Positions 887 to 20,133 of a DNA stretch of 20,133 nt are shown in pieces; the first letter of the stretch is position 1; each line of letters begins with the position of its first letter. A program made the translations under genes and the position numbers. The DNA lies in IMG/VR virus record IMGVR_UViG_2778261637_000004, one strand, 5' to 3'. The notes below the pieces were generated by a model. That model did not search any database. It saw only the letters and a list, made by a program, of their open reading frames with translations, and was not told the DNA's origin. This stretch comes from a virus. Lineage: Duplodnaviria > Heunggongvirae > Uroviricota > Caudoviricetes.

Positions 887-1533
887 TTGTGAGTATCTCA
901 CGTTCTCACTGCGCTGGGCAAAAAAACATCGCAAAATCTGGAGCAGGCACGCAAAACAGAATTGAATGTTGCGGGGAGGAAAAATGCCGCTCTGTTTGAG
1001 TGGGCGGCATTTGTGAAGGCTGAAAAGGAAGAATTGGCGTTACGAGTTATTCTGTTGAATCTGTTTGTAGAGTATTGGCCTCAGTTCCGCATTGTAGCTG
1101 ATTTTTTTCTAATGCGTTTTTTGATTATGTACACCCTTATGTACACGTTTTTTTAAAGCGTTCAGCAATTACGCTGGTGGATGATCACGGATAACCTGAC
1201 ATCTACAGCCGCCTTAAAAAGCTGAACCCGACAAGCATTACTGCGTATCGGGTTCGTTCGCTCTTTCTACTCGTGGCAGATGAGTTTACGGTGTGATTTT
1301 ATCGGGCGAGGGTATTGTATCAGGCATCCCCTTTTCTATGCAGATTTGCATAGTTCCGAATGGTGGCGTTATGGAAGCCTCCCATATCAGCATCATGCCC
1401 ACCAGCGTGAAGTATTTTTTATTTCGCGGGTGTAAAAATTTGACGAGGCGGGCGGTCCCATAAGCAATGGGTTGTAGGGATTTCGATCCCCCCTCCTGAA
1501 TGCAATTTTTCGTATATATATATACAAAACAGT

Positions 1534-2388: not shown

Positions 2389-2703
2389 TCACGATAGTTC
2401 CGTTTTGTTGAATTCAATTATATCAAGGTCAGAACTTTCGTAATCCTTACCGAATAAAGCAAAACATATCGCGTCAAGTTCTCTCTTATGTTTGGACGCC
2501 CGATCATAATTACCACCCCAACAGCAAATGAATCCACCAAGTACTGCTGATTCAAAAAGTAATGATGCTGCATCAATATGTCTGAACCAGGAGTCTATAA
2601 GTAAAGCAGAGAGTGATATTAATGTTCCCCACCCGCCAATCCTTCTCCATTTCTCAGCTTCATATTTAAGAGAAGCAATATATTCAATTTTATCTCTCGT
2701 CAT
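2389..2703 (-). CDS. Small predicted membrane protein (104 aa, two hydrophobic segments), AT-rich; last gene of the cargo operon
   Basis: Its ATG overlaps the stop of the upstream 925-aa gene (TGATG), indicating translational coupling. Hydrophobic stretches IGGWGTLISLSALLIDSWF and ASLLFESAVLGGFICCWGG. About 38% GC against a GC-rich neighbourhood. Confidence 0.6.
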   Translation of the reverse strand: MTRDKIEYIASLKYEAEKWRRIGGWGTLISLSALLIDSWFRHIDAASLLFESAVLGGFICCWGGNYDRASKHKRELDAICFALFGKDYESSDLDIIEFNKTELS

Positions 2704-5480
2704 CAGTTCCCCACCGCCTTTCCAAAATCCGGTGCTCTACGTGGCGCAATAGCACCCGGTTCCCACCAACTCGTTATGTCGAACTCCCGTTGCGCGCGGT
2801 CCCTTACTCGATCATTGTAACCAGGGTTTGCCATCTCCTGAAGTTGTTGCAATATCAGGTGATTGGTTATCGCTTTCGCATACCACAGGTTTGCGAATGG
2901 AGTGATCATGCGGGCTGTTTTCAGTGCATCGGCACCGAATGATGTTTCTTCACCCTGTAGAGCCTTCTGTGGGTTAGTAATCAGTAATTTTGTTAACTGC
3001 TCTGCAAAGCTCAACACAGGGCCACCCATAGTGGCACCGATGCTGGAGCCATATTGCGTATGGTCCTGGAAAATAAAATCACCGTAGATACCGAACGAAC
3101 CACCTTTCAGTAGAGCCTGAACCCATGTGGTTGGTTTTGTCATATCCAGCGGGTCATTACCATTTAACAAACTGTTCATCTGGATCGCAAACATACCAGC
3201 AAGAGTTGTTCCCCCGATATATGAGGCCAGAAATTTAATGGCCGGAACGGTGTCCAAATCCCGTGTTCTGTTAACAAGTTGCCGAAATCCAGCAAATGGG
3301 GTTGTTTTGAAGAGCATGAAGCTCTTCATTAACTCGCCAGCATCATCACGGGCATATGTATCAATACCCGTAGCGGTGGTCACAGCATTGGTCATCTCAC
3401 CGTGCGTAATTCCCAGCAATTTCTGGGCTGCTTCAGCGCGTGCATTACGAATCATGCGCGTGATGGTCTGCTCAGCCTCAGCGTCGAATGCTTCTTTCAT
3501 CCGTTTCAGGCGTTCTGGAGGGAGATCTCCAAGGGCTGCCAGTGCCTTTTCACTCCCGGCACGAATCCGGGCAATACGGTCTGCCATAATGTCGGCGATT
3601 ACGTTATCGGGCACAGCGTAAATCGCGTCTGGCGTCATCCCCATATGCCCGGCAGTAGTCATCGGCCTGAGTTCTGCCGCTGCCATGATGGCCCAGTCCT
3701 CATTGCTCCATCCCTTGTTAGCCAGAATGGTTTTATCGGTTCCTTTTATATCGTCCAGCGTCTTAAATTTTCTGGTCAGCTCGCCAATATTTTTGTACAT
3801 CAGGAGACCAAACGACGCTTTGTTTGCGCGGTCCATAGCGATCAGCCCGGACCACTTCAGTGTCTTCTCTGCGAACCAGCCAGTTATGCCGCGAGACAAG
3901 TCAAACCCGCCCATTTTCGAAACCACAGCAGCATGTGAATCCACCAGCAGACCGAGTTCAGCATTCGCCTTTTTGGCATCTCCACTAAACAGGTTTTTGA
4001 TAGTGTTAACGGAAAGCCGCATTCCACCACGGGTAAAGCCCAGCGCCTGCGCATTTGCCCGCATAATTGCCTGGTCGCTGGTTGCTGTCAGTACGCTGGT
4101 GCCAAGCATGGCGCTGGTCATCAGGTTACGCAGACCACCAACTGCTGAAGAGAACACACTCGATGAAGCGACACCATTTAGGCCAGCCATTGAGTTGAAC
4201 ATACGGGCAACTAATTTGGCCTCATCCTCCATTTCTTTTTTGCGTTTCCCGCCTGTTACTGCGCGCTTATAGATGCGATCCAGTACCAGGGAAAAGTTTC
4301 TTTCGGCGTCCGGACCAAAGGCTTTAACGACGCCCAAATCCCTGGATGATGATTGCAGGTGCGACATCATCACCCCCACCAGCGGCTGCTGAGTGTATCG
4401 CTCCATATAGGCGAAGTGTGACTGCGCATCCTTGAACGCCATCACCCTGTGCTGAGAACCACGGCTCTTTATTCCTCCGGCTCCCATAAATGTACCAGGC
4501 TCAATTTTGTTTGCCCCATCAGTGGCCTTCGTTTCAAAGATCGCTTCCAGTGCCTGACGGTACTCGACGTCATTCATAATGCTGCCGTCAGGATTAACGT
4601 AATTGCTGCGATCCTGCGTGTTGTAAGCGTCATCAACCCATTTCTGGCGGGCAAACTCAATCGGTGGCTGGCGACCTGAAAGACGTGCTGTAGCTTGCTC
4701 TGCCACTGGTAACGATGCCAGCCATTCTTCGCGCCCGGCATTGCGAATAAGGTCAGCATCATCCACATATGGCGTATGCCAGTCTTCTCGCAGGCCTATG
4801 TCAAAGCCGTTGTCGTTCATCTCATGACGAACACGGCCTGTTACATCCTTCCAAATCTGTGCAATTTTCTTCGCCAGGGGATTACCGGTATCTTCGCCAT
4901 AAATTTCTTTCAGGATCTGGAGTTGTGCAGACTTTGCCGCCTGCCTGTCGAATACACTCCGAAACCGCTGCTCTCCAAGCGCCCTGCTCTGCTCGAAGAA
5001 TTTGCGGACGTCATCACCTGCTTTTAGAAGTTCAGCACTGAGCTGACGGGACCAGTCCTGATATGCCCCAATTGCAAGCTCTTCAGCAGAAGTAACGGAG
5101 ATATCAGCTTTGTCTCTCGATCGTCGGCCAGCAAAAATAAACTGCTGCAAATTAACAGGTGTCTGCTGATCAGGCGGGATGTTAGCATCGAGAGTGTCAG
5201 TAATTTTACTGATGGCGATCGCATTCTGGGCAACACGCTGTCTTTTCTTGTACACATCATGAACCACACGCTGGCGTACCAGTTCTGCTGCATCCATGTA
5301 TGTTTGAGCATCAGGAATACCACTTTTGCCTTCTTTTGCATTCTTTCTGTGCACATGCTGCACAGCTTCTTTGATACGATCTTCAATATTTTTCAGCTCA
5401 TCAGCCTTTGGCTGGCGACCAAGTGTCTGCGCAATAGCTTCAACACATGCCTGTTTCATTATGGGTTCCTCAAGAAGCAC
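2703..5480 (-). CDS. Large hypothetical protein (~918-925 aa), Gly/Ala/Ser/Thr-rich with hydrophobic glycine-rich segments; cargo operon gene 3
   Basis: Long uninterrupted ORF. The track start is a GTG at 5480; the more likely start is the ATG at 5459 (MKQACVEAIAQ) preceded by GAGGAA. No Walker A or other recognisable catalytic motif. Segments such as GTSVLTATSDQAIMRANAQALGFTRGGM and GGTTLAGMFAIQMNSLLNG resemble phage structural or ejection-protein composition. Confidence 0.85.
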   Translation of the reverse strand: MLLEEPIMKQACVEAIAQTLGRQPKADELKNIEDRIKEAVQHVHRKNAKEGKSGIPDAQTYMDAAELVRQRVVHDVYKKRQRVAQNAIAISKITDTLDANIPPDQQTPVNLQQFIFAGRRSRDKADISVTSAEELAIGAYQDWSRQLSAELLKAGDDVRKFFEQSRALGEQRFRSVFDRQAAKSAQLQILKEIYGEDTGNPLAKKIAQIWKDVTGRVRHEMNDNGFDIGLREDWHTPYVDDADLIRNAGREEWLASLPVAEQATARLSGRQPPIEFARQKWVDDAYNTQDRSNYVNPDGSIMNDVEYRQALEAIFETKATDGANKIEPGTFMGAGGIKSRGSQHRVMAFKDAQSHFAYMERYTQQPLVGVMMSHLQSSSRDLGVVKAFGPDAERNFSLVLDRIYKRAVTGGKRKKEMEDEAKLVARMFNSMAGLNGVASSSVFSSAVGGLRNLMTSAMLGTSVLTATSDQAIMRANAQALGFTRGGMRLSVNTIKNLFSGDAKKANAELGLLVDSHAAVVSKMGGFDLSRGITGWFAEKTLKWSGLIAMDRANKASFGLLMYKNIGELTRKFKTLDDIKGTDKTILANKGWSNEDWAIMAAAELRPMTTAGHMGMTPDAIYAVPDNVIADIMADRIARIRAGSEKALAALGDLPPERLKRMKEAFDAEAEQTITRMIRNARAEAAQKLLGITHGEMTNAVTTATGIDTYARDDAGELMKSFMLFKTTPFAGFRQLVNRTRDLDTVPAIKFLASYIGGTTLAGMFAIQMNSLLNGNDPLDMTKPTTWVQALLKGGSFGIYGDFIFQDHTQYGSSIGATMGGPVLSFAEQLTKLLITNPQKALQGEETSFGADALKTARMITPFANLWYAKAITNHLILQQLQEMANPGYNDRVRDRAQREFDITSWWEPGAIAPRRAPDFGKAVGN

Positions 5481-5487
5481 GCTGCCG

Positions 5488-7512
5488 CTACAGAATAAAC
5501 CTTCGATTCGTTCTGGACTGTCTTAATCTGTTCATCCAACTCAGCCAGGAGATCAGAAAGTTTTGTCGGGTTTCCGGGTGAGCTATAGTCAGCTCAGGAT
5601 TGGCAACAGCCATGTCCCTGGCAGCCATAAGGTCATAGCTGTTGGATGAGAGAACCTGCCCTGTATCTGGATCAACGCTGACGTCCCCTCTGTGTTCACC
5701 AGCCGATGAGAAAGCACTTTCAGCACGAGGGACAGGCGATTCACTAATTGGCTCTGATGATGTTTCATATCTGACACCATTTTCTTCAAAAACCTTTTGT
5801 ATTTCATGGTATTGCTCTTGGTAAGTATCAGATGTATCTGATCGCAATGGACCATCAAGCCCTCGCGCCATCCCCCCAACATTTACAGGCTGACCATCAT
5901 TAAGTTGCCTGTATGCTTCATCCATGGCGTCAACATGGCTGTTGATGCTCTCATTGCTGGTGTGAAGCACTGGTGACGATTCAATATCGTAATGAAGCCC
6001 CTCATTCAAAATGTGGGCTGCATCAATATCGCTTGGTTTTATTCTTTCCCTCGCCCGGATACCAAAAACTTTTTCTACTGCGGCTTCCAGTTTCATATTG
6101 CGAAGACGCATACTTACGAGTAACCGTAACTGCTCAGGTGTAACGGTTCCAACCTGAATACCACTGTATCTGAATATATAGGCTTTAAAACCTGAAATAA
6201 TTTTTTCCCATGACGAAACGCTTGTCTTTAGAGATGGATTTACTGCATGTGCGGCAACTTCTTCAGCGTATAACCACTCAGGATATGTTTCAGGGTACTC
6301 ACCCCTTTTCTTATATTCATAATATTGTGACATCCCATATGCAAATTCAGGATAGTCAGAATGCTTGTTTGCAGATTTAAGTACAGCATTAGCTAGCTTT
6401 CTGGCCTTCCAGTCAGGGTAATGGCGCTGCTCAAGATGAAGCGCCTCATGATGAAGGGTTTCTAACAGTTCTTCATGGTCTTTTAATCCATTAATATTTA
6501 TTCTTATTATTGGTTCTTTTCCAGAAGCTACTGTCACATGACCTTTATTCAGAAGTATTTCTCCATCACTATTTTTTATTGCTGGTTCATTAATAAGTTC
6601 TATTACTCCTGAATCAGATAAATCACGAACCATTGACTCAATGTTACCATCAGGAGATTGCTGATAATGTTCACCAAAAGTTGATTTTATTTCTTCTGCA
6701 GAAATGTTCGACTCTGTACCATCATGGTTATTATGGGTAGTCAGGTGATGAACGCCACCAAAGACCCCGCCTAAAACGGCATCGACTAACATCGCCTGAC
6801 CGTCAAATACCCGGTACTGTTTTGCCATCTCCGTGTAGCCTTTTTCCTCCAGTGTTGCACCGACAGAGTAACGGTTCAGTCCACCGAATCCGGTGTTGAT
6901 TGCCACACCTGAGGCAATGCGCGTTGCCAGTGTGGTGCCGACGGCAGCGGGTAAGGCCATACCCACAGCATTGAAAAGGCTCTGCTGCGTTGCCAGGTTA
7001 CGCGCCGTAGCCTCATCTACTCCCTTCCCTTTAAAATCCTGATAGGACTGCTCATACGTAGAACCGAAGGCTGTAGCAGCGCCGATGAGTGGGCCGCCAA
7101 ACATAGTTGTTCCGATTGCAGGAACAAATTTACCAAGCTCATTTAATACCTCAGCCGCCATTCCCTGGCTGCCTGCATCAGGCTTCACATAGCTGCGGGC
7201 ATCCTGTAACTGTTTTCCGATCGTGTCGTATGTATCATTCAGTGTTTTGTCAGCATCAGGGAACATCTCCCGAAAAATATTAACAGTCGGTGCCACGTCT
7301 GCGGTAAATGCCGGATCGCTAATCAGGCGCTTGCTGAATCCGACGGCAGACTGCGCGAGACCGAGAGCCCCCTCCGCTACGCCGCTCAAAAGTGCAGTAC
7401 CTGAACCCTGGAAGGGAGTCGGATCGTAGTCTTCTGGCCTTGCTGGGTTGGCAACTGTTTTGTCGTCAATCCATGCCTGACCTTCTGGAGCCAAAGAAAA
7501 AACATCAGACAT
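5488..7512 (-). CDS. Large hypothetical protein (674 aa) with an embedded AT-rich segment carrying an HExxH(x4)H zincin-like motif; cargo operon gene 2
   Basis: Its ATG overlaps the stop of the 843-aa gene (TAATG). HEALHLEQRH occupies residues 355-364 (nt ~6421-6450). Roughly nt 6170-6760 are 27-35% GC, against about 55-60% in the flanking parts of the same gene. Confidence 0.85.
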   Translation of the reverse strand: MSDVFSLAPEGQAWIDDKTVANPARPEDYDPTPFQGSGTALLSGVAEGALGLAQSAVGFSKRLISDPAFTADVAPTVNIFREMFPDADKTLNDTYDTIGKQLQDARSYVKPDAGSQGMAAEVLNELGKFVPAIGTTMFGGPLIGAATAFGSTYEQSYQDFKGKGVDEATARNLATQQSLFNAVGMALPAAVGTTLATRIASGVAINTGFGGLNRYSVGATLEEKGYTEMAKQYRVFDGQAMLVDAVLGGVFGGVHHLTTHNNHDGTESNISAEEIKSTFGEHYQQSPDGNIESMVRDLSDSGVIELINEPAIKNSDGEILLNKGHVTVASGKEPIIRININGLKDHEELLETLHHEALHLEQRHYPDWKARKLANAVLKSANKHSDYPEFAYGMSQYYEYKKRGEYPETYPEWLYAEEVAAHAVNPSLKTSVSSWEKIISGFKAYIFRYSGIQVGTVTPEQLRLLVSMRLRNMKLEAAVEKVFGIRARERIKPSDIDAAHILNEGLHYDIESSPVLHTSNESINSHVDAMDEAYRQLNDGQPVNVGGMARGLDGPLRSDTSDTYQEQYHEIQKVFEENGVRYETSSEPISESPVPRAESAFSSAGEHRGDVSVDPDTGQVLSSNSYDLMAARDMAVANPELTIAHPETRQNFLISWLSWMNRLRQSRTNRRFIL

Positions 7513-10043
7513 TATTCAACCCTCACGACAATAGCTTTATTGGTTCTGGGATCTGTTGCCCAGCGTCCGCTACCATTTACAAGCCGATACCGGTTATTGC
7601 CGATATTAACTGGCGTGAAATTTGACACTGCATTTACGTTAAGTCCGGCATCTTTCAGTGCTTGTTTCGCAGATGTGGTATAGCGATCTTTGAAAGTAGA
7701 TTTATCCATGCCGAAAGGCATTACAACGTCGCCGCCATTAAAACCATTGTATATACCGCCAGTAGCATACTTCACGGCATCAGCTACAATGTCTGTATCA
7801 GGCATACTGGTTCTTACCGTAGATGCATCACCAGATTGATAAGCTATTCCTGCATAAGCGGCTTTGAAAAGGCTATAACTGATCTGGCGTAACTGCGGGT
7901 TACGGGCAAATGCATTACCTACCTGTTCGTCGAAAGCGTCTTTCATCTTATCTTCGCTCGGCAACTGTACCGGAGTTATGCCCGCATTCTTCATGGCCTT
8001 CGTCGGATTCAGTAGTTGGTCGCCGGAAAGAATAACCTTTGCAACGTCGTACTTGTTCATCGTCGGCTTATACCCGATGAACTGACTATATGGGATCGTC
8101 GGCTTGGTGTTGTCGTACTGGTTATCCGGCGTGCCCAGCAGCAGCGCAGAATAGGCTGTTGCCGCACTGTTCGGAGCAATTACAGATGCCACCTGCCGTA
8201 TTGCTGGCGCAGGCAGCTTCTCCCCCATGCTCTGCAACAGTTTAATTGTCTGGTCAACGTTCTGAGTGCCGCGCACCTGCTGTGCCAGCGCAGCCGCCTC
8301 TTCACTGTTGAGGATTGGGGCATTAATTCCCAACGCGCGTAAGCTTTCCTGCGACGAGAAACGGTTAGCCACCTCGGCAGTGATGTCGTCAGGGTTGTTG
8401 CTGGTGATCGGCTTATAGGCTCCGATTTCCACCGCTGCACTAAACGGATTATTCTGCCTCTGGGTTATTACCTTCGTGGCTGCCGCCGATACCCGGTCGA
8501 ATAACTCCGCACGAGACGCATACCCCTCCCCTGTTTCACCAGTATCCGGGCGCAATTGCTCAACATATGCGGTAATGCTGCTTGTCGGCATGTTGCGGAA
8601 AGAGCCTATATACTGTCCGGCGATCTGCAAATTTCTGAACTCGATATATCGCAGGTTTCCTTCTCTGACACCATAAGCTGCAATGAACTCATCCTCACCA
8701 GGTGGGTTAGGAAATTCAACGCCACGCATAAACGCAGCCGTTGCATCGCGAACCCTGCTATCGAGCATCGTTCTATATTCAGCCTGCTGCTGTCTGGCTA
8801 ATGCATCCGTCTGTCGCAACACGCTGGCCTGATCTGATTCACTTAAAGCATCGAACCAGGCTACACCGGTATAACGTTTATTTTTTGTCGGTAGCTGAGA
8901 AAGCCCCAGTGCGGCACTAACGCCAGCGGCCAATTGCTGATCACTGTACGGCTGACTGCCTTGCTCATGATGAATAATTGCTTTGCACAGAGATTTCAGT
9001 GTGTCAGGATTTGATGCGTCAAGCGGCTGGTCAGGAGTTACACCGAGCTGAGCACATACTGCCCGTATATAAGCATCAGTTTTATTATCATCACTGGCCG
9101 GTGCCCAGCGATTAATTATTTCGCTGATGGTGTCATAACCCTGACGCTGATACGACAGCAAATTGCGACCAAGCGCGCGAATACCGTGTTCAGGGGTTTC
9201 GAATTTGGCAAAGCGACCATCATCACCAGTCTGCCCAACCCACGGATTAGTTTTGCTGTATTCAAGATTGCCGGGGTTATTGTTGCGTATACCGCGGGTA
9301 CGATCGGAAGAGCCACTATCTGCTACAGCACGGCGAGATCCAGCAGCAGTATCGCTTAACTCTCCGTTTTGCTGTCTTACCTGAAGATAGTTTGCTCCAA
9401 TAGCATTTTGAGCAGTTGCTTTTGCTGTTGCTTCTTTAAACTCGATTTTCTTGGCCTGGATTTGCTCGTCGCTCCAGCCATGCGCAATACCGTAATCCTC
9501 AATTTGCTGGAAAGTTTGCGTATTAGCCAATATGTATGCTGCGTTGTTGCCATATAATGCTGAGGCATTTTTACCATTATTCAGCAGTGTCGCCTGAAAC
9601 TGGCCTTCTTCGTAGGCATTTATTTGCCCTATCTCGTACCTCCCGGCCTGCGTAGCGAACTGAATACGCTGCTGCTGCGCCTGCTGCATGAAAGCATTAC
9701 GAGCCTGTTCATCCGGCAGCGACATAGCCAGTTGTTCGACCTGAGCATCAAACTGCTGTGTATACTCATGGCCTTTTCCAATAGCATTTTTCCCTTTCAG
9801 ATTAAGCAATCCTGTTTCAGGATTATTCAGCAGATCACTGCCTGTCTGACTGAGTTTAAGGGATGCCTCCTGAACCAAGGCAATATTGGCGCGCTGTTTT
9901 GCCTGACCAAGAACATCAATTGCCTCTGTCCCTGCCCGAACAAAAGCATCACCAATACCTGGCTGAGAAAACGTCTGCAAGCCTGCTGACTGAACTCCAC
10001 GGCTCTCAACCTGACGTCCGGATACTGTTGGTACGACTGGCAT
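7512..10043 (-). CDS. Large hypothetical protein (843 aa), Gln/Ala-rich N-terminal region and a conserved-looking GIRNNNPGNLEYS...RWAP block; cargo operon gene 1
   Basis: Long ORF with ATG at 10043 and an AGGGGG Shine-Dalgarno upstream. The block at residues 251-315 (nt ~9099-9293) looks like a conserved domain core. GKNAIGKG is not a canonical Walker A. Confidence 0.85.
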   Translation of the reverse strand: MPVVPTVSGRQVESRGVQSAGLQTFSQPGIGDAFVRAGTEAIDVLGQAKQRANIALVQEASLKLSQTGSDLLNNPETGLLNLKGKNAIGKGHEYTQQFDAQVEQLAMSLPDEQARNAFMQQAQQQRIQFATQAGRYEIGQINAYEEGQFQATLLNNGKNASALYGNNAAYILANTQTFQQIEDYGIAHGWSDEQIQAKKIEFKEATAKATAQNAIGANYLQVRQQNGELSDTAAGSRRAVADSGSSDRTRGIRNNNPGNLEYSKTNPWVGQTGDDGRFAKFETPEHGIRALGRNLLSYQRQGYDTISEIINRWAPASDDNKTDAYIRAVCAQLGVTPDQPLDASNPDTLKSLCKAIIHHEQGSQPYSDQQLAAGVSAALGLSQLPTKNKRYTGVAWFDALSESDQASVLRQTDALARQQQAEYRTMLDSRVRDATAAFMRGVEFPNPPGEDEFIAAYGVREGNLRYIEFRNLQIAGQYIGSFRNMPTSSITAYVEQLRPDTGETGEGYASRAELFDRVSAAATKVITQRQNNPFSAAVEIGAYKPITSNNPDDITAEVANRFSSQESLRALGINAPILNSEEAAALAQQVRGTQNVDQTIKLLQSMGEKLPAPAIRQVASVIAPNSAATAYSALLLGTPDNQYDNTKPTIPYSQFIGYKPTMNKYDVAKVILSGDQLLNPTKAMKNAGITPVQLPSEDKMKDAFDEQVGNAFARNPQLRQISYSLFKAAYAGIAYQSGDASTVRTSMPDTDIVADAVKYATGGIYNGFNGGDVVMPFGMDKSTFKDRYTTSAKQALKDAGLNVNAVSNFTPVNIGNNRYRLVNGSGRWATDPRTNKAIVVRVE

Positions 10044-10139
10044 CAGTAACCCCCTGTTTTGAATCGTGTACCAGAATTCATAAAACCTGATTTAAATAAC
10101 ATTGGCGTCCCTCCGCTTTGATGCTGTACCAGCGATTCA

Positions 10140-10346
10140 TTACTCACCCCCCGATGCAAAACCATTCTGATTAAGCCAGGCGTTTACGGCATGTCTGACA
10201 ATCTGCGCCACGCCTGGTAATGGCTGATCAGGGTGATTGTTCACATGGTCGATTCTGTACTGCTTAAGGCGCATCACGGTCTGTGCATCCAGATGAACGG
10301 AACCACCTCTGACATCGCCTGTGTTCAGGTCATTAATACAATTCAC
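10140..10346 (-). CDS. Small protein (68 aa), possible ribbon-helix-helix-type regulator heading the cargo operon
   Basis: GTG start at 10346 preceded by a strong AAGAGGAAA Shine-Dalgarno. The beta-strand/helix/helix pattern (SVHLDAQTVMRLKQYRIDH...VAQIVRHAVNAWL) is consistent with an RHH fold but is unverified. Confidence 0.55.
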   Translation of the reverse strand: MNCINDLNTGDVRGGSVHLDAQTVMRLKQYRIDHVNNHPDQPLPGVAQIVRHAVNAWLNQNGFASGGE

Positions 10347-10447
10347 AGCAATTTCCTCTTACTGACTAAACTATGCACATTATCGATCGAAAAAAGTGGT
10401 AGATAAACATATTTCTATCATAAAAACAGATTGATTGAGTTCAGATC

Positions 10448-10472
10448 CAAAAAAAGCCGGATTGCTCCGGCT
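10448..10472 (-). terminator. Strong Rho-independent terminator between the replication operon and the cargo operon
   Basis: On the minus strand: AGCCGGA-GCAA-TCCGGCT hairpin followed by seven T residues. Confidence 0.7.
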
Positions 10473-10478
10473 CTGTGC

Positions 10479-10628
10479 TTACTTCTGGTAGTTACGCCAT
10501 ACTGATTTCCCGATCCCATCTATCCCCATTTCTTTTTCAGTGCGTTTAAGCGACCGTTTCAGGTCTTCTAAATTATCCGGTTGCTTCGGTGGCCTCTGTG
10601 CCTTCCTGGAACATTCCAGTCGTCGCAT
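10479..10628 (-). CDS. Small basic ORF (49 aa) below the ORF-track threshold
   Basis: Hand translation gives MRRLECSRKAQRPPKQPDNLEDLKRSLKRTEKEMGIDGIGKSVWRNYQK. The stop lies 7 nt before the terminator hairpin. The ribosome-binding site is weak. Confidence 0.3.
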   Translation of the reverse strand: MRRLECSRKAQRPPKQPDNLEDLKRSLKRTEKEMGIDGIGKSVWRNYQK

Positions 10629-10712
10629 TGATATGTAATACCGTTCCTTGTCAGTTCCCCAACTGCATTACTTCACCCCATCGCGCCGCCGCTCTTCGAT
10701 ACAGGGTTTTAG

Positions 10713-11129
10713 TTAGCCTCCGGCTCTTCCGTAGCGCTGTTCTGGTGGATTCACATAGCCCCTTTCTTGCAGGTATTCGCGAATATCAGACATCAGGAGA
10801 CGGTTAACCGTGCTCCTGTCTTTTCTCTGGTAAAGGCGTCTGGTGATCATGAAGTAGTTAGCAATGACCTCCGGTATATCCCTGACGCTGATACATGCTG
10901 TATGCTGGTCAATAGCTTCAATCATCTCTTCACGAGTTACAAAAGTCTGGCGTAAACGAGTGATCACACCATGTACATCTGAATGATCATTTATACGCTT
11001 ATTTTGGCGCTTCGCGCTCTCGACTGTGACACTGACAACAATGTCAACTCTTTGTTTCTCCGCCATTTCATCCACAATGTGATCACCTGCACGGCGACCA
11101 TGTGCGTGATCATTTCTTACTATTTCCAT
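10713..11129 (-). CDS. Hypothetical protein (138 aa), last large gene of the replication operon
   Basis: ORF with GGAGGAG upstream of the ATG at 11129; overlaps the end of the FinO/ProQ gene by 20 nt. No recognisable motif. Confidence 0.55.
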
Positions 11130-11607
11130 TCATCTCCTCCAGTAGTTTTCCTGCGTGCATCTGTTGTAGTGGTGTTACCTCGCCGCACGGCTGGCCTTTC
11201 AGGTCGTAACGCGCGCCACCAGCTACCAGGGCGCGGTAATAGCGCGGAGTCTGCACATAACGCGCCAGCGTTGCGCGTAGTGTTCCCTGTCCGAGTGAAA
11301 TACCTCTCGCGGCAATATCCTGTATCAGGTCGTCAAATATCCCCACCTTAAGCGGCTTAGGTGATTCCGGGCTGAATAATTCAGGCCATAGCTCAATAAG
11401 ACGGTTAACGCGTCTGCGGTTTTTACGCTGCCGTTTGGTCATACGCCGCCGCGGTGTTTCTCCTGTGAGCTTCTGCTGTGTGTTCTGGTTATCTGGCATC
11501 ACTTTATGCGCCGATGTGGTTTTATTCTGCTGCTGAGCCGCCTGTGCTGTTTTCTGCGGCGTGCCGTAAATGCCCTTCGGTTTTCTGTTTATGGTCAGCT
11601 TTGTCAT
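11110..11607 (-). CDS. FinO/ProQ-family RNA-binding protein
   Basis: Basic N-terminal region ([14 protein letters not shown]) followed by [30 protein letters not shown]...[39 protein letters not shown], matching the ProQ/FinO domain signature (PLKIGI..DL...RY...R.DL.G.PCGE). Confidence 0.75.
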
Positions 11608-11643: not shown

Positions 11644-12069
11644 TTAAAACGGTATCCCGTCCCCGTACGGATCATCGTGCTGGCCTGTCTGTTGCTGTGC
11701 CCTGTTCAGTGCATCAGTAGCCTGCCCCTGCTGGCCTTTTTTGCCGCCCGGTCGCGCCGTTCGCGCACTGATTACGCTGTCTGCGATAACCTGCCATCCC
11801 TGCCTCGTTTCGCCGTTCTGGCCCGTCCACCGGCTCACCTGCATGTTACCGGCCACGCTCACCAGTTCGCCTTTGTGGTGTTTTGCCAGTGCGTCAGCCT
11901 GTCTGCCAAACGCCAGGACGGATAACCACATCGTCGCCGTTCCGTCATCTGCCTGATTGCATGGAAGAGGGACCGCCATACTCGCCATCGCCATTTGTGT
12001 GCCCTTGCTGGTGGTCTTTAACTGCGGGTCAGCCACCAGCCGCCCGTAAGCTGATATTTGCGCCGTCAT
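11644..12069 (-). CDS. ssb: Single-stranded DNA-binding protein (SSB family, mobile-element type)
   Basis: 141 aa; OB-fold-like N-terminus, a Gly/Gln-rich linker and a C-terminal acidic tip ending DDPYGDGIPF (canonical SSB ends DDDIPF). Confidence 0.8.
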   Translation of the reverse strand: MTAQISAYGRLVADPQLKTTSKGTQMAMASMAVPLPCNQADDGTATMWLSVLAFGRQADALAKHHKGELVSVAGNMQVSRWTGQNGETRQGWQVIADSVISARTARPGGKKGQQGQATDALNRAQQQTGQHDDPYGDGIPF

Positions 12070-12279: not shown

Positions 12280-14406
12280 TTAATCTTCTGCTTCAGGCTG
12301 GAACATCAGCACGTAAAAAATATGCTGCTTCCCGCCAATCCTGCCGAGCGCCTTTTTCTTGTAACGGCGGTCGCCTCCCGCTTCCAGCATTCCGGCAGCA
12401 CTCAACGCGCGGGCAAAGTGAGACGGATTAAATCCCTGTGCGATCTCCCCCTCAAACACATGCGGAAACGTGTAAAAACGGAACTCATCATCTTCATTTC
12501 TGATACTCCCCTTTCTGTATCCGGCAAGGTCTTTAATCGGTAAATCACGCTCATCGCTGTTTGGATAAGGAAGGTATCGACTGAACCCGAACGACGACAA
12601 AAACGCCTCAGCCTGTTCAACCATCTGTTTAAATTCCCTGTTGCCCGTGCCGAATTCCTTCACCCAGGCATTAAAGTTATGCTGAACTGCATCACGGCAC
12701 GCCTGAACATCCCAGCCTGTAACATGACCGGAAAGCACAAGCGCGGCCTCCAGTACGGCGAATCTTTCCCCCACGCGGTGAACCTGCTCGCCGTAGCTCT
12801 CCGGTATCAGGTTGCGCCACCGCTCGCGACATGCCCTTACCGCGTCCTTTGCCTCCTGCTGGTGGCCTGCCAGCCATTTAACCCACTCACGACCTGCCGC
12901 CCCGTGATTTTCTGTCCAGGCATCTTTTAACGCGTCTGCGTGCGCCTTTCCGGTGCTGTATTCGTGAAACTGCGAGGCCTTTTCCATCGGCACGTTAAGC
13001 AGACGGACAAGCTGCCCCGCTTTAATTTTTATCCCTTCCGTTTTGAGGAATGTTTCAACGTCCATTTCTCCGGTGCTGATTGCCACCGTGCGCCAGTGTT
13101 TTATCTCCCTGTTGCCGCCGTCCTTCGCCCCCTGTAATTTCCCGGAACCGTTAAACAGCGTATAGGCTGACGTGGACACCTCCCGCGCGTTTCCGGCCTG
13201 GCCTATTTCATCCAGGGGTAACAGCCCGTCATTATGTGCTTCGGCCTCGTTGGCGATACCTAACGCCGTTCCGTACCAGGTCAGCCGTTGCGCGTCCGGC
13301 TCTCCCCATAAACTTGATGCAATGTTCTGTGTGGTGGTTTTACCTGCTGATGATTGCTCAAAAAGATGAACCCCGAAGCCGTCAGCACCCACCAGCCCGA
13401 TTAATGGTGCGGATAGCGATACCGCCACACCCAGCATCATGGACGGATTACCACCAGCCAGCCGCGCCACGGTATCGCGCCAGCCCTCCGCTGTTCCCGC
13501 CACGGAATAGCCATTAACTGCGGCAGTTTTTCCGGTAAACAGGATGGGTTTCTCTGATTCACCAATGACCGAACCATCCGGCATGATGTACGCACCAAAA
13601 TGCCAGCCCGTTGTAGTGCTTAGCTGCCATTCCTCATGACTTCCGCTTAACTGCATCCAGTCAGCCAGGATGGCTCTGTATTTGCCGTTGGTCGTCACGT
13701 TAAGACCGTGGTCTTTCAGCAACCGCCAGCCGTCACGGTCACCAATGCCTCCGCACGGGACCGCCATTGTAATGACCTCATGGTTTGCTGGTTTTTTCCA
13801 GCGCATCACGCGGTAATGCTCTTTGCCGATTGTTCCTGTTCCCAGTAGTTCAAGCGGAGAACATAACCACGTCTCAGGCCGGATAATTTCGCCTGACTGC
13901 TTGTCCACTTTGGGCGTTACCCAGAAAACACCATCGACGCGACTTTCAACACGAGGCTTTAATTCGTCATCATAATTTCCGGTGAAATTTGTCTTTGCCG
14001 GAAGGTTGATCACCAGACTGTTACCGCGTTCCGCATCATCCTTCAGTCCAGCCATGCGCGGTGTCCAGTCCTCCGGCTGCTGGTCAACAAAGCTGCGGTA
14101 GCAACGCGCCTCCTTCACACCCGCCACTGCAAGCAGTGTCGCTATCTGTGTAAGGTGCTGCTCTGATATTTCACCAGCACGATAAACGCGCACGTAATAG
14201 CGCCCTTTGTCGATGATTTGCGTGTCTGCCAGACTCGCCAGTTGTTCCGGTCCAAGAATAACTGGATGTGTATCATCTGCCGCAATATGCTTTCCGGCCC
14301 ATTCGCTCCACTCTTTCGCATGTGCCCAGGCATCACTACCCGCAAAGATAATCACCTCCGTCATTTTGTCTTTCGGCTGGTGCTTTAAATTCGGTGCGCG
14401 TTTCAT
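12280..14406 (-). CDS. Replication initiator: primase/helicase-type protein with a P-loop NTPase domain
   Basis: 708 aa. Walker A-like LFEQSSAGKTTTQ and an acidic LLPLDEIG stretch (Walker B-like). ATGA start/stop overlap with the upstream 100-aa gene. Sits beside the iterons and ssb, as in P4-alpha-like and PICI replicons. Confidence 0.8.
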   Translation of the reverse strand: MKRAPNLKHQPKDKMTEVIIFAGSDAWAHAKEWSEWAGKHIAADDTHPVILGPEQLASLADTQIIDKGRYYVRVYRAGEISEQHLTQIATLLAVAGVKEARCYRSFVDQQPEDWTPRMAGLKDDAERGNSLVINLPAKTNFTGNYDDELKPRVESRVDGVFWVTPKVDKQSGEIIRPETWLCSPLELLGTGTIGKEHYRVMRWKKPANHEVITMAVPCGGIGDRDGWRLLKDHGLNVTTNGKYRAILADWMQLSGSHEEWQLSTTTGWHFGAYIMPDGSVIGESEKPILFTGKTAAVNGYSVAGTAEGWRDTVARLAGGNPSMMLGVAVSLSAPLIGLVGADGFGVHLFEQSSAGKTTTQNIASSLWGEPDAQRLTWYGTALGIANEAEAHNDGLLPLDEIGQAGNAREVSTSAYTLFNGSGKLQGAKDGGNREIKHWRTVAISTGEMDVETFLKTEGIKIKAGQLVRLLNVPMEKASQFHEYSTGKAHADALKDAWTENHGAAGREWVKWLAGHQQEAKDAVRACRERWRNLIPESYGEQVHRVGERFAVLEAALVLSGHVTGWDVQACRDAVQHNFNAWVKEFGTGNREFKQMVEQAEAFLSSFGFSRYLPYPNSDERDLPIKDLAGYRKGSIRNEDDEFRFYTFPHVFEGEIAQGFNPSHFARALSAAGMLEAGGDRRYKKKALGRIGGKQHIFYVLMFQPEAED

Positions 14407-14705
14407 TTCTTGCCCCTGAATGCGTTAATCATGTTCTTTATTACCTGAATATTTGCCCGTGCTTTCTCTTTACTGGTGGGCTTACTGCGTGGTGCTGCAC
14501 ATACCAGTGAAAAATCACGCCGGAACTGATGAACGGGCATCACACAGTCATAGTCGTACCCTGCGCGGCGGTATGTAATGTGCCGTTCATACACGGAATT
14601 AATAACCACGATGTCGCCATATTTATCCCGGAAAATATCCCCGATCCTGATTTTCGGGTGAGTCTGTCCGCTGGCATTTAAGCCAGTAAATTTAATCTTC
14701 TTCAT
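14403..14705 (-). CDS. Hypothetical protein (100 aa), translationally coupled to the primase gene
   Basis: ATGA overlap with the primase start; 2-nt gap from the upstream 85-aa gene. Confidence 0.6.
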   Translation of the reverse strand: MKKIKFTGLNASGQTHPKIRIGDIFRDKYGDIVVINSVYERHITYRRAGYDYDCVMPVHQFRRDFSLVCAAPRSKPTSKEKARANIQVIKNMINAFRGKK

Positions 14706-14707
14706 GT

Positions 14708-14965
14708 TTATTTCCCGGTGTGGGGTTCTTCTTTATATTTATGGGCTAACAAATCTGGTAATTGCCTGTATTTATCCTCGGCAATATATTCAGAATAATC
14801 GACAGCACTGTTCAGTATATCTAACGCCGTTTCATGCTCCAGATTCGAAACTATAAGGAACGTTGCTACTTTTAGCATATTCGCGATATGCAAAAGAGCA
14901 TCAATTTCATTTTTTGGCGCTTCGCTGAATTTTTGCTCCAGAAGAATAAATCGTTCATCACGCAT
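14708..14965 (-). CDS. Hypothetical protein (85 aa)
   Basis: ATG at 14965 preceded by AGGAGGA; acidic, helical-looking sequence. Confidence 0.6.
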   Translation of the reverse strand: MRDERFILLEQKFSEAPKNEIDALLHIANMLKVATFLIVSNLEHETALDILNSAVDYSEYIAEDKYRQLPDLLAHKYKEEPHTGK

Positions 14966-15161
14966 AGTGTTCCTCCTGACGGATGCGGGCAGTAAATACC
15001 ATCACGCAGCCAGCCGGGGATTGCTGACGGGCTTCCTGTTCGCTGGTGGCCACGATGTGAATCACGCGCGGTTGTGCCGTACTCAGGGCGATAAAACGCC
15101 AGATGTATTTATTCAGGTTGTGCGAGTCCCGCCCTTGCGGGTGTGTGGTATGATTTCTCAT
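14958..15161 (-). CDS. Hypothetical small protein (67 aa), first gene of the leftward replication operon
   Basis: This is the C-terminal 67 codons of the 415-aa track ORF, starting at an ATG (15161) with GAGGT upstream; it overlaps the next gene by 8 nt. The rest of the 415-aa ORF conflicts with a well-supported plus-strand gene. Confidence 0.45.
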   Translation of the reverse strand: MRNHTTHPQGRDSHNLNKYIWRFIALSTAQPRVIHIVATSEQEARQQSPAGCVMVFTARIRQEEHYA

Positions 15162-15257
15162 AGCTACCTCGATACTTCTGCTATCGTTGGTGGTTAGAAG
15201 CCCGGTTAGTGTTAGCGCACTGCCGGGTTTCGTCGTTTCTGCACCTTGCATCAACAA

Positions 15258-15336
15258 GGTGTAAGTAACTTTATTTATAGGTGGCTTACATGTCAATGCT
15301 TTTATGTAAGACTTTTTATGTGTATATTGTCTTACA
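15258..15336. promoter_or_regulatory. Divergent promoter/operator region with nested inverted repeats
   Basis: GTGTAAG (15258-15264) pairs with CTTACAC (15330-15336), and CTTACAT (15284-15290) with ATGTAAG (15303-15309). TATATT -10-like element at 15322-15327. Lies between the leftward replication operon and the rightward RHH-like gene. Confidence 0.45.
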
Positions 15337-15357
15337 CTTTCGTTAAGAGGATTACAG

Positions 15358-15663
15358 ATGGCTACAGGTTCAAAAAACGCAAAATCACAATCGCTGACAG
15401 CTCGGATCCCGCATGATGTTATTGAAGGCATGGAATCCGTAAAACTGGACGGCGAAAGCAACGCCGGATTCATAGTAACCGCCATGCGTGGTGAGATCGC
15501 CCGCCGCCAGGCAGAAGGAAGCGGAGAAAATCCCCTCGTGTCTTCACTGGATGCCTTAGTTAAGGTCGAACAAATCGGCATCAAGGCAGCGGAGGAAATC
15601 GGGCAACTCGTAGCCGTCGCTCGTGAAGAACTCCAGCGCCGGGAGGCCAAAGAGCAGGAATAG
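15358..15663 (+). CDS. Small DNA-binding protein, ribbon-helix-helix-like (MobC/CopG-like); candidate island regulator
   Basis: ATG preceded by AAGAGGA. SLTARIPHDVIEGMESVKLDGESNAGFIVTAMRGEIARR is consistent with an RHH N-terminus followed by a helical C-terminal region. Confidence 0.6.
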   Translation: MATGSKNAKSQSLTARIPHDVIEGMESVKLDGESNAGFIVTAMRGEIARRQAEGSGENPLVSSLDALVKVEQIGIKAAEEIGQLVAVAREELQRREAKEQE

Positions 15664-15720
15664 CCACTATCAGCGCCATAGTTTGAGGAACGCAGGCGCA
15701 TTGCTTTACAGGGCAGCACC

Positions 15721-15900
15721 ATGAGCGACACAGAATCAACAAAAACACCATCACCAACTCGTAAGAGACGACGCAAAAATATAGCGCATGAACATGAATC
15801 AGAAAGATTCGCACCTTGTTCGTTTGCTCTTGAGAAATTCCTTAAAGAGCACAGGAAAAAGCTCTCGTTGCAAACCCTGGAACGAACCAAATCTGACTGA
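15721..15900 (+). CDS. Small basic protein (59 aa), not in the ORF track
   Basis: Hand translation gives MSDTESTKTPSPTRKRRRKNIAHEHESERFAPCSFALEKFLKEHRKKLSLQTLERTKSD. Followed by a plus-strand terminator; the ribosome-binding site is weak. Confidence 0.35.
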   Translation: MSDTESTKTPSPTRKRRRKNIAHEHESERFAPCSFALEKFLKEHRKKLSLQTLERTKSD

Positions 15901-15967
15901 TCACATTGCCCACCAGCTGCAAATCTGGCATTGTTGGCGATGCGTTTGATTTCCTTTGTTCCCACTG

Positions 15968-15995
15968 GCGACCTCTCCCGGTCGCCTTTGTTTTG
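15968..15995 (+). terminator. Rho-independent terminator for the rightward small operon
   Basis: GGCGACC-TCTCCC-GGTCGCC hairpin followed by TTTGTTTT. Confidence 0.6.
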
Positions 15996-16044
15996 CCAGT
16001 TATCCAGCAACGGGGCGCTTTTTCTTTCTGTAACGTTCGGATCG

Positions 16045-17496: not shown

Positions 17497-17703
17497 TCAG
17501 GCTGATGTGTTTCGGCGTTCTTCCAGCCAGCGATTAATCTCTACCGCATCAAACGCGGTAACATTACTGGTAAGTTTTATAGGCCGTGGTAACGTGCCAT
17601 TTTTCACCCAGCGATCGATTGTTGGCATAGAGACTCCCAGCAGTTCTGGCAAACGGTATCGGCGAATGTAGCCAGTAGTAGGAATGGTAGATTGTTCTGT
17701 CAT
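17497..17703 (-). CDS. alpA: AlpA-family transcriptional regulator / excisionase-like protein
   Basis: 68 aa with a winged-HTH core (YIRRYRLPELLGVSMPTIDRWVKNGTLPRPIKL); the usual integrase partner in P4-type and CP4-57-type islands. Confidence 0.8.
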   Translation of the reverse strand: MTEQSTIPTTGYIRRYRLPELLGVSMPTIDRWVKNGTLPRPIKLTSNVTAFDAVEINRWLEERRNTSA

Positions 17704-18771: not shown

Positions 18772-18864
18772 ATGCCACCTTTAAGCATTTCACCTTAAAA
18801 AATGAATGAGTCCAGCGGTAAGGTTTTCCGCTCTTCACCCCGTCGGGCTAGGCTCAATCTGTCC

Positions 18865-20133
18865 CTATGATAGCTTATGCATTTTCCTGATTGGCGTCAC
18901 GTTGTATTCTTCATTGCGTTCTAGCGCTACCAGCAGATCAGCCCACTGTGCCAGCGCAGCTTTACGCTCATCAAAATACTGATGGCGGTTATAAATCCCC
19001 TCCACACCCTTAATGCGATGATTGAGGCATCGTTCCGCTACGACAGGATCAACACCCAATGCTGCTAAATGAGTACGTGCGGTACGCCGGAAGTCGTGAA
19101 TCGTGAAATTAGGCACATCCGGCATTTCGGCGCGAACCTTAGCCAGTGCTACGGGTAAAGTGCTTTCCTGAATATGTGGGATCATTCTGTTTTGCATCTT
19201 CCTGGCTGGAAGCACCCATGCGCTATTACATGAAAAGGTGTGTAGCTCTCTCAACCATTCAACGGCAGGAGAAGGTAGAGGTATATCAATAGGGTCTCCG
19301 TTTTTGCTGCGTTCTTCCGGCAAATGCCATACCGCACCATCTAAATCAAACTCTTCCCATCGTGCGGCGCATAACTCCATCTTACGAACGCATAGTGCCA
19401 GCAATAGCTTAAATGTCAGTTCGTTCTGGCGGCTGAATCCTTTGGCTTTACGCATTGCCTGAAAAAATTGGATTAATTCGTCACGGTTCAGCCAGCGATC
19501 ACGAGATAATTCTTTCCCACCAGCATCTGATACTTCGAAAGCTGAGCAGGGATTTATCTCCAGAGCGTGGCGTTTTATCCCATAGTCAAAGATACGGCGT
19601 GTCCAGCGTAATACATCTGTTGCTATCGTTGGTGCTCCTCGGTCAACGATACCTTTCAACATGTCGTCAATGTGGCGTGGCTTAACGTCCTCTACCTTCA
19701 TATGCCCAATGCAGGGGTTAATATCCTTATCAATTCTCCGGCGAAGGATATCGGGATGTTTCCATCTCGGAAGTATCTGTCGCTCGAAGTATTCGGCGGC
19801 CAGATCTGAAACGCGCATGGCGTTTTTCTCAGCCTCCATTTTTGCCAGTGCTTCAGCTTTTCGTTCCTGTTTTTCTGCTGCTACGTCATAGCCAAGAGCA
19901 ACTCTGGCTGACAGCTCTTTTGCTGTTTCTCTGGCTTTTGATAGTGACAGTTCGGAGTAAGAGCCGATAACCATAGCCCGCTGTTTTCCTGCGAGCTTAT
20001 ATCGGAATCGCCAGAACGGGACTGTGTAGTTTTTGGGGTAGCAAATATAAAGGCCGTTGCCGTCTGCCTTGCCATCAAATCTGTCTCCCGCCTTTATCCA
20101 TGCGCGGATCTGCATATCTGTGAGTTTTGGCAT
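18865..20133 (-). CDS. Tyrosine recombinase, P4-type integrase with an N-terminal arm-binding (DUF4102-like) domain
   Basis: 422 aa. The N-terminus (LTDMQIRAWIK...DGNGLYICY...WRFRY) matches the P4-integrase arm domain. The C-terminus has HDFRRTARTHLAALG and a GIYNRHQY tyrosine region. The start codon is the final three bases of the window. Confidence 0.9.
   Translation of the reverse strand: MPKLTDMQIRAWIKAGDRFDGKADGNGLYICYPKNYTVPFWRFRYKLAGKQRAMVIGSYSELSLSKARETAKELSARVALGYDVAAEKQERKAEALAKMEAEKNAMRVSDLAAEYFERQILPRWKHPDILRRRIDKDINPCIGHMKVEDVKPRHIDDMLKGIVDRGAPTIATDVLRWTRRIFDYGIKRHALEINPCSAFEVSDAGGKELSRDRWLNRDELIQFFQAMRKAKGFSRQNELTFKLLLALCVRKMELCAARWEEFDLDGAVWHLPEERSKNGDPIDIPLPSPAVEWLRELHTFSCNSAWVLPARKMQNRMIPHIQESTLPVALAKVRAEMPDVPNFTIHDFRRTARTHLAALGVDPVVAERCLNHRIKGVEGIYNRHQYFDERKAALAQWADLLVALERNEEYNVTPIRKMHKLS

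Follow-up and report, generated by a model that had tools for sequence, protein, structure and literature searches.

A predicted Enc34-type peptidoglycan-hydrolase domain in a gp15-type virion protein homologue encoded by a PICI-type chromosomal island

NCBI family PHA02564 has as its founding structure the catalytic domain of ORF39 of the Hafnia phage Enc34 (Protein Data Bank (PDB) entry 7Q47), an enzyme that lyses permeabilised Gram-negative cells as measured by turbidity reduction (PMC8943055). Its fold is all-helical and bears a remote resemblance to the alpha-lobe of lysozyme; the enzyme uses Glu131, Trp79 and Tyr95, and an N-acetylglucosaminidase activity has been proposed by analogy with GH73 (PMC8943055). 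Peptidoglycan-degrading activity has been reported for the Jorvik Stl homologue, and the fold recurs in GP11, a virion protein of the tailless phage NO16 (PMC13552765). In T7, the N-terminal transglycosylase domain of gp16 is used at entry to pass highly cross-linked murein, and a review of ejection proteins notes that a hydrolase domain can move between them (PMC8954989). Here we describe an Enc34-type domain predicted in an 843-residue protein that is encoded on a 20,133-nucleotide stretch of Caudoviricetes DNA (IMG/VR record IMGVR_UViG_2778261637_000004, hereafter the window). The protein is a homologue of gp15 of the Salmonella phage epsilon15, and its gene lies with gp16- and gp17-like partners (together, the trio) on an island of the phage-inducible chromosomal island (PICI) type. 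The best explanation of the whole is probably an Enc34-type hydrolase domain within a gp15-type ejection protein, carried by a satellite as late cargo.

The initial annotation of this DNA had singled out positions 9099-9293 as a conserved-looking domain core in an otherwise low-complexity protein. The minus-strand translation of these positions is exactly the string noted there, GIRNNNPGNLEYSKTNPWVGQTGDDGRFAKFETPEHGIRALGRNLLSYQRQGYDTISEIINRWAP, residues 251-315 of the 843-residue open reading frame (ORF), and translation of the plus strand is meaningless. A search with residues 238-380 returned 158 homologues, many of them free-standing proteins of ~140 residues with the source labels 'structural protein P5' or 'virion protein'; from these, 50 homologues that are 41-66% identical to the window protein were aligned, and the conservation counts below refer to this alignment. 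At least 90% conservation is reached in 24 of the 65 block columns, compared with seven of 55 in residues 316-370 and none across the ~12 aligned residues upstream (238-249), which establishes the block as real and as the most conserved stretch. The whole alignment holds 18 invariant columns and 14 more that are at least 90% conserved. Invariant positions within the block are G251, R253, N254, N256, N259, W268, G270, F281, G287, R289, A290, Y298, A314 and P315, and N320, Y325, E360 and G362 are invariant past its end. As a description, 'domain core' was right about conservation and too narrow in extent: the block covers only the N-terminal half, approximately, of a domain that runs from residue 248 to ~372. 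'Low-complexity' overstated the composition of the rest (Ala 12.5%, Gln 8.1%, with the Gln excess mainly in residues 1-247), as entropy never falls below 3.2 bits in any 40-residue window of the protein; the flanks of the domain are conserved among orthologues.

Comparison with PDB sequences by phmmer gave two matches, both restricted to the domain (query residues 248-403): chain L of 9VVP, a protein named Gp29 (E 4e-39), and the Enc34 endolysin 7Q47 (E 1.8e-16, chain A over residues 248-368). With a family profile, these matches strengthened to E 1e-50 and E 2.2e-43, respectively. Like 7Q47, the domain is predicted to be all-helical, with an N-terminal loop and hairpin followed by five helices, and Glu360, the equivalent of Enc34 Glu131, falls on the last core helix. 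The full-length AlphaFold2 model (predicted local distance difference test, pLDDT, 60; predicted template modelling score, pTM, 0.40) was of insufficient quality for a fold search and served for secondary structure only. In PHROGs, the families that residues 244-363 match carry the labels 'tail injection transglycosylase' and 'endolysin'. Homology identifies the block as the N-terminal part of an Enc34-type (PHA02564) peptidoglycan-hydrolase domain of ~125 residues (248-372). The alignment preserves the catalytic triad of the family member whose structure is solved: Glu360 within HE(N/Q)G and Tyr325 are present in 50 of 50 sequences, and position 313 within RWAP is Trp in 46 and Tyr in four. 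The profile and phmmer matches thereby support the lysozyme-like or murein-hydrolase function at which the initial annotation had guessed. Scans of the 843-residue protein with Pfam and NCBIfam returned zero matches; neither collection has a model for the family, so it is understandable that no family had been named.

The domain is widespread. A profile of the 50-sequence alignment, run against 1.84 billion proteins, recovered 19,154 representatives of 50% identity clusters at E<=1e-3 and 13,620 at E<=1e-10, in which the domain is found either by itself or at the N-terminus, in the interior or at the C-terminus of large proteins. About 750 phage records include it as judged by tblastn against phages, and predicted viral structures with this fold in BFVD are labelled 'Virion protein' or 'Internal virion protein D'. 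By tblastn against phages, the Gp29 of 9VVP is the T7-gp16-equivalent of a Kayfunavirus, a T7-like phage, with record labels 'internal virion protein D', 'internal virion protein with endolysin domain' and 'DNA ejectosome component'. Many family members bear no annotation beyond 'hypothetical', 'structural protein P5' or 'head protein', and a Pfam or NCBIfam model is absent from the copies that we searched.

Two other assignments of the domain have to be weighed here. The GenBank record of epsilon15 describes gp15 as a 'putative lytic transglycosylase' on the basis of an HHpred hit to SltB, which implies an SLT/GH23 enzyme. The geometry of the catalytic Glu is common to Enc34 and GH23 enzymes, and a sister protein, described below, has an SLT domain in the same position. 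The window protein has no Pfam match at E<=0.1, including to the SLT profile (PF01464), and epsilon15 gp15 and phiV10 p18 have none at E<=0.01; we regard an SLT/GH23 identity as very improbable. The domain could also be an end-of-cycle endolysin like Enc34 ORF39 and not an entry enzyme, as the founding member of the family is an endolysin and related PHROGs carry that label. This we consider the most improbable of the alternatives, given that the domain is internal to an 843-residue structural-protein homologue without holin or spanin neighbours, that the island has no lysis genes, and that uetakeviruses, the epsilon15-like podoviruses, have a separate GH19 endolysin cassette.

Within the 843-residue protein, the domain has a region of long helices on its N-terminal side and a helical region on its C-terminal side. 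This protein matches phrog_992 ('head protein') over residues 1-843 at E 1.4e-288, and its amino acid identity is 78% to epsilon15 gp15 and 64% to p18 of the Escherichia coli phage phiV10, whose record notes similarity to the PM2 structural protein P5. Homology to the epsilon15 virion protein also supports the 'virion-associated' half of the earlier guess. The block was, as proposed, the best handle for classifying the operon, having led to the gp15-gp16-gp17 cassette of epsilon15; that the carrier of this cassette is a satellite-type island and not a phage could not be revealed by the block alone. The gp17-like protein is 89% identical to epsilon15 gp17, and its true start is likely the ATG at 5459, giving 918 residues as annotated in other copies. 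The gp16-like protein is 89% identical to epsilon15 gp16 over its first 245 residues only. PDB sequence searches with the gp16- and gp17-like proteins gave nothing credible. DNA similarity to uetakevirus phages is confined to window positions 2713-10043. Near position 5578, 7 bp (CCGGAAA) that are present in every other island copy are missing and the last ~38 gp16 codons are frameshifted, reflecting either a copy-specific lesion or a sequencing error.

The role of the domain is further informed by its exchange. A complete uetakevirus prophage of Escherichia coli SW070919 encodes a syntenic protein (WP_077487335.1, L006:6798-9416) that is near-identical over residues 1-141 and has a Pfam SLT domain at residues 233-339 (E 1.6e-17), the same place as the Enc34-type domain. 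That the Enc34-type domain is interchangeable with SLT at one position provides direct comparative evidence for its role. Between the window and the L029 island copies, synonymous divergence (dS) is 1.33 in the domain segment compared with 0.13 in both flanks, and the ratio of nonsynonymous to synonymous divergence (dN/dS) in the segment is about 0.08. These values indicate a domain that is under strong constraint and has been swapped as a cassette.

We compared the window with E. coli genomes, where the whole of it corresponds to a chromosomal island between dinD and yicC. Comparison with the empty site of K-12 delimits an insertion of 19,119 bp, placed immediately behind the stop codon of yicC, which covers window position ~1064 to beyond 20133; the element continues for ~190 bp past the window end, and a full copy is available (L004:15049-34167). 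We used this comparison since a direct-repeat search for the attachment (att) site at yicC gave only a 12-bp match. The TATGTACAC motif found at the distal end recurs at the integrase end in the full copy. The same element, including the trio, is also found at tRNA-Gly next to actS in STEC388, EC17CM6 and E1, with a different integrase and bounded by a 16-bp direct repeat that includes the 3′ end of the tRNA.

Genes on the island follow the order integrase, 318-residue ORF, AlpA, AntA, BRO-N, Icd-like, 85-residue ORF, DUF4222 and DUF927 primase, then SSB, ProQ/FinO, 138-residue ORF, PerC pseudogene, orf68, gp15, gp16, gp17, orf104 and 86-residue ORF (Table 1). Pfam and PHROG scans of the island ORFs gave no capsid, portal, terminase, gp12-14, tail, tailspike, holin or endolysin match, the 138-residue ORF having only a weak partial 'terminase' PHROG match. 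The AntA and BRO-N products could act in derepression of a resident helper prophage. The 415-residue ORF listed in Table 1 is probably an artefact of ORF calling; for this region, which varies between copies, other copies annotate a short Icd-like gene and an opposite-strand YlcI/YnfO gene. The PerC-family regulator gene (window ~10479-10704, minus strand) is annotated as frameshifted in every annotated island copy inspected (L004, L005, L007, L032) and intact in uetakeviruses and in the backbone relative L013.

Table 1. Features of the window (positions in the 20,133-nucleotide stretch)
Feature	Position	Strand	Basis or remark
843-residue gene, homologue of epsilon15 gp15 / phiV10 p18 (virion tail-hub/core 'ejection' protein); contains the enzymatic domain	7512..10043	-	phrog_992, GenBank
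Enc34-type (PHA02564) peptidoglycan-hydrolase domain, predicted	8928..9302	-	residues 248-372, ~125 residues
Earlier-noted block GIRNNNPGNLEYS…RWAP	9099..9293	-	RNNNPGN loop, beta-hairpin, helices 1-2, RWAP motif; N-terminal part of domain
Trp313 codon (= Enc34 Trp79), substrate-positioning aromatic in RWAP	9105..9107	-	HMMER alignment
Tyr325 codon (= Enc34 Tyr95)	9069..9071	-	HMMER alignment
Glu360 codon, predicted catalytic acid (= Enc34 Glu131), outside the earlier block	8964..8966	-	alignment to the Glu of Enc34 'HENG'; coordinates checked
Gln361 codon, HEQG vs family HENG	8961..8963	-	polymorphic within the island lineage
gp16-like gene, 674 residues (686 in all other island copies)	5488..7512	-	phrog_1145
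gp17-like gene, virion structural protein, 925-residue ORF	2703..5480	-	phrog_684, E 2e-295
orf104, last operon gene, conserved in island copies	2389..2703	-	no Pfam or PHROG match
orf68, first gene of PICI late operon; in ordinary PICIs, capsid genes come directly behind it	10140..10346	-	phrog_4934
Late-operon control region	10347..10474	-	terminator hairpin 10453-10474; no sigma-70 consensus promoter (terminator scan)
ProQ/FinO	11110-11607	-	PF04352
SSB	11644-12069	-	PF00436
DUF927 primase/helicase	12280..14406	-	PF06048, E 1.7e-46
DUF4222 gene	14403-14705	-	PF13973
415-residue ORF	14958-16205	-	only last ~45 residues match Icd-like family
AntA, BRO-N anti-repressor-type genes	16045-17419	-	early region
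AlpA-type regulator/excisionase	17497..17703	-	PF05930 E 3e-6, HTH_17, phrog_66
int-alpA RNA motif (Rfam RF02996)	18793..18858	-	42.5 bits vs gathering score 35.8; just downstream of integrase gene
Tyrosine integrase	18865..20133	-	window ends at its start codon; integrase-proximal att just beyond, next to yicC
Distal end of element	1064..1147	.	K-12 homology stops at ~1063; TATGTACAC repeats at 1126 and 1138
dinD, chromosomal, adjoins insertion site	1-837	-	Bro-N domain match, E 9e-8

Several features place this backbone among PICIs, whose primase family includes DUF927 (PMC10111431). The integrase is at one end with alpA near it, the genes have one orientation, a primase module is present, and the element lies in the 10-20 kb range with att boundaries and without a full set of virion and lysis genes. 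The late operon departs from the PICI pattern in holding the gp15-17 trio in place of terS, rpp or a major capsid protein gene. In a backbone relative of 87-90% DNA identity, which is embedded in a prophage terL, the same slot holds an HK97 capsid-protease-portal-connector-HNH-TerS module, a layout that marks a capsid-forming, helper-embedded PICI type (PMC10111431); another backbone relative has almost nothing in that slot. The product of orf68 is 88% identical to that of the gene directly preceding a ClpP-protease/major-capsid fusion in a classical 9.5-kb PICI (L014), and the ~125 bp upstream of orf68 share ~90% DNA identity with the upstream region of that PICI and are likely an activator-dependent late promoter. 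Together, the orf68 leader, the control region and the slot content of relatives indicate that the slot filled by the trio is the late one of a PICI-type satellite, used for helper exploitation.

Uetakevirus prophages have been mislabelled as PICIs (Hochhauser et al.), and we considered whether the backbone is the early region of a uetakevirus. We compared the 16 non-trio island proteins, excluding dinD, with uetakevirus genomes and rejected this origin; the only matches were the integrase (26%), AlpA (32-37%), the BRO-N domain and a 33-residue stretch of the 86-residue ORF. Uetakeviruses have DnaT/lambda-P-type replication, RecET and a CI-type repressor.

A related possibility is that the trio is a decaying leftover of an epsilon15-like prophage that has lost its head, tail and lysis genes, leaving a domain that is now functionless. 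The order of integrase, regulators, replication genes and gp15-17 does resemble a uetakevirus prophage minus its head and tailspike blocks, the gp16-like gene of the window is frameshifted by the 7-bp deletion, and the PerC-family gene upstream carries a frameshift annotation in the annotated copies inspected. Against such decay, the non-trio proteins have few uetakevirus matches and the backbone, including the late-operon control region and first gene, is that of PICIs. Furthermore, the trio is maintained under purifying selection. Across eight island copies (the window, L004, L005, L007, L027/L028, L029 and L031), gp15 (843 residues) and gp17 (918 residues) have no internal stop in any of the eight, despite gp15 protein divergence of up to 8.3%, and gp16 is kept at 686 residues in seven. 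Within-island dN/dS is 0.20-0.32 for gp15, 0.05-0.22 for gp17 and 0.02-0.22 for gp16 (non-window copies).

Evidence of mobility also speaks against a remnant. Besides the use of two att sites with different integrases, the element is found as its own contig in three assemblies (19,047, 19,173 and 19,349 bp). A 17.6-kb contig, L028 (Logan SRR18158765_249), is circularly permuted; within its positions 9401-11400, the distal end of the element meets the integrase end through 18 bp of overlap in which the att core lies (reverse complement of GAGCGGGCGAAGGGAA). This junction is a precise attP-type product, from an excised circle or a tandem array. The 19-kb contigs have no terminal repeats that would be a sign of circular assembly, and the junction evidence comes from L028 only. 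Diverged lineages with the same primase-SSB-trio layout, described next, complete the case; having rejected the prophage remnant as our main interpretation on these grounds, we judge it quite unlikely, and much less likely than the interference with a helper that is discussed below.

How is the satellite-type arrangement distributed? The island-type trio is present in 37 of 5,426 complete E. coli genomes. It is the minority context for gp15-type loci: when one genome per species is taken, 11 of 12 such loci are complete prophages, and in IMG/VR 72 of 80 are phage-type and six of 80 island-type. In Pectobacterium zantedeschiae 9M (L023, 586-19040), a trio whose gp15 is 49% identical stands beside a DUF927 primase, SSB, KilA-N and AlpA-like genes, with no capsid or gp12-14 gene within 10 kb, the left boundary being outside the region viewed. 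Between primase and trio this locus has a block of QueC-like and nucleoside-deoxyribosyltransferase-like genes, possibly for DNA modification. The island-type loci of IMG/VR include another lineage, with gp15 74% identical, on 17-19-kb contigs with integrase, DUF927 primase and SSB. Its contigs L068 and L069 show the primase-SSB-trio layout with no capsid genes in view and look circularly permuted relative to each other. The diverged lineages number at least three: Escherichia, IMG/VR (gp15 74%) and Pectobacterium (gp15 49%). These may represent a family, not described before, of PICI-type satellites of uetakeviruses that, where other PICIs have late-operon genes for capsid size or packaging redirection, carry their own tail-hub/ejection proteins, hydrolase included; we find such a family plausible, though we would stop short of calling it probable.

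Island genomes often hold a second gp15-type locus (17 of 37, compared with 368 of 5,389 others, or 6.8%; odds ratio 11.6, Fisher p 9e-11, not corrected for relatedness). In the three inspected of these 17 genomes, the second locus adjoins a 'T7 gp14 family' gene, the mark of a uetakevirus prophage. Island and helper alleles of gp15, gp16 and gp17 are 8-20% different in sequence. The co-occurrence of the two loci fits a helper relationship and would also suit a satellite whose gp15, gp16 and gp17 poison helper assembly or block uetakevirus superinfection, the hydrolase being dispensable or attenuated. Satellites commonly disturb helper assembly (PMC10111431), the near-identity of residues 1-141 to proteins of E. 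coli uetakevirus prophages would permit co-assembly, and the gp16-like protein shares only its first 245 residues with epsilon15 gp16. Position 361, next to the predicted catalytic Glu, is Gln in five of the eight island copies, raising the possibility of an island-specific inactivating change. We rejected this explanation: three copies, among them L029 and the one with the attP junction, have Asn, and Kayfunavirus Gp29, solved in a cryo-EM entry, has Thr at the matching position. A polymorphic Gln361, with Thr in Gp29, is not evidence of inactivation. The enzymatic domain, moreover, is under the strongest constraint of the protein, and all catalytic residues are kept, which would be unexpected if catalysis were irrelevant. 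Finally, a PADLOC scan of the trio and the ORFs of no assigned role matched no defence model. We therefore consider interference or exclusion unlikely as the function of the trio.

A role in DNA delivery is the interpretation that we favor. By analogy with its homologues, the gp15-type protein would be packaged in a podovirus virion with its gp16- and gp17-like partners and expelled through portal and tail at infection. The domain would then cut glycan strands locally, with Glu360 as general acid and Trp313 and Tyr325 positioning the sugar, and the opened murein would allow the ejected proteins to build a DNA conduit across the periplasm. In T7 gp16 this job is done by an SLT domain, and in Kayfunavirus Gp29 by an Enc34-type domain as here. 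Genomic context suggests that the trio is cargo in the late operon of a satellite of PICI type, 19.1 kb long; this element probably takes capsids and tails from a uetakevirus (epsilon15-like) helper and provides them with DNA-delivery proteins of its own. That the element is a functional satellite using its own delivery proteins is a tentative proposal, in which helper-dependent induction, packaging and transfer have indirect support from the attP-junction contig and from the co-occurrence with a second gp15-type locus.

Several points weigh against this interpretation. The island has no capsid, portal or gp14 gene, so packaging depends on a helper. The gp16-like gene of the window has a frameshifting deletion, and this copy may be impaired; its gp15-type protein has Gln361 beside the predicted catalytic Glu where 48 of 50 relatives have Asn. 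Peptidoglycan-degrading activity, for the window protein as for epsilon15 gp15, is extrapolated from Enc34 at 37-45% identity, and the bond cut could be of the glucosaminidase, muramidase or lytic transglycosylase type. At pLDDT 60, the full-length model is of too low a quality to inform on how the domain is presented. Whether epsilon15 gp15 lies in the tail hub or in the internal core is not settled in the literature that we read (PMC12391199).

The Enc34-type domain itself is of modest novelty, since both its family and the type of virion protein that contains it were known; the carrier raises the interest. Known satellites steal capsids, remodel capsids, redirect packaging, or build capsids and steal tails. 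We found no satellite with ejection or internal virion proteins in the literature searched, an absence there and not a proof of novelty, and to our knowledge no PICI has been reported with a podovirus helper. A large domain family without a Pfam model (more than 13,000 clusters at 50% identity, E<=1e-10) can now be named Enc34-type peptidoglycan hydrolase, and, in epsilon15-gp15-type proteins, the catalytic Glu can be assigned to residue 360. If our interpretation is correct, satellite-filled helper particles would carry a DNA-delivery apparatus encoded by the satellite, with which they could, for instance, enter cells from which the helper is excluded. Mobilisation by uetakeviruses would make these islands a natural experiment on which parts of an ejection protein must match the capsid and which the target cell, and strains holding both island and uetakevirus prophage are already sequenced, among them PU-1 (CP042246), ExPEC XM (CP025328) and AH19D088 (CP196239).

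Compared with known systems, the domain and its protein combine features that are found apart elsewhere. Enc34 ORF39, of 26 kDa, belongs to a lysis cassette and has a membrane anchor of two helices at its C-terminus, whereas the window domain is internal (248-372) to an 843-residue virion-protein homologue, has no lysis genes near it, and reads HEQG rather than HENG. Kayfunavirus Gp29 (9VVP chain L) carries the same Enc34-type domain on a large podovirus ejectosome protein, there at the extreme N-terminus of 1295 residues and with no similarity to the window protein outside the domain. T7 gp16 likewise has an N-terminal domain that cleaves peptidoglycan at genome entry, but this is an unrelated SLT domain, and no homology of the epsilon15-type trio to T7 gp15 or gp16 is detectable at sequence level.

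The closest relatives are epsilon15 gp15 and phiV10 p18 (phrog_992), full-length orthologues that agree with the window in the position of the domain and in the gp15-gp16-gp17 order. In those phages the gene comes after gp12-gp13-gp14 and before the tailspike and lysis genes; in the window it lies behind a PICI late-operon leader and replication genes, on an element devoid of other virion genes. The genes that mark a uetakevirus genome (gp12-gp13-gp14, portal, capsid and tailspike) are found neither in the window nor in the full 19.1-kb element, whereas 11 of the 12 species-level loci and 72 of the 80 IMG/VR loci contain them. The C-terminal two-thirds of the window gp16 differs from that of epsilon15. 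The SLT variant of SW070919 shares the genomic position, the near-identical first 141 residues and the placement of its cleaving domain, the rest not being alignable. With Gram-negative and capsid-forming PICIs, the element has in common the integrase, AlpA, Bro/Ant, Icd-like and DUF4222 genes, the DUF927 primase, SSB, the int-alpA RNA and site-specific att. It differs from them in its late slot, where capsid, TerS or Rpp genes are replaced by three podovirus tail-hub/ejection genes.

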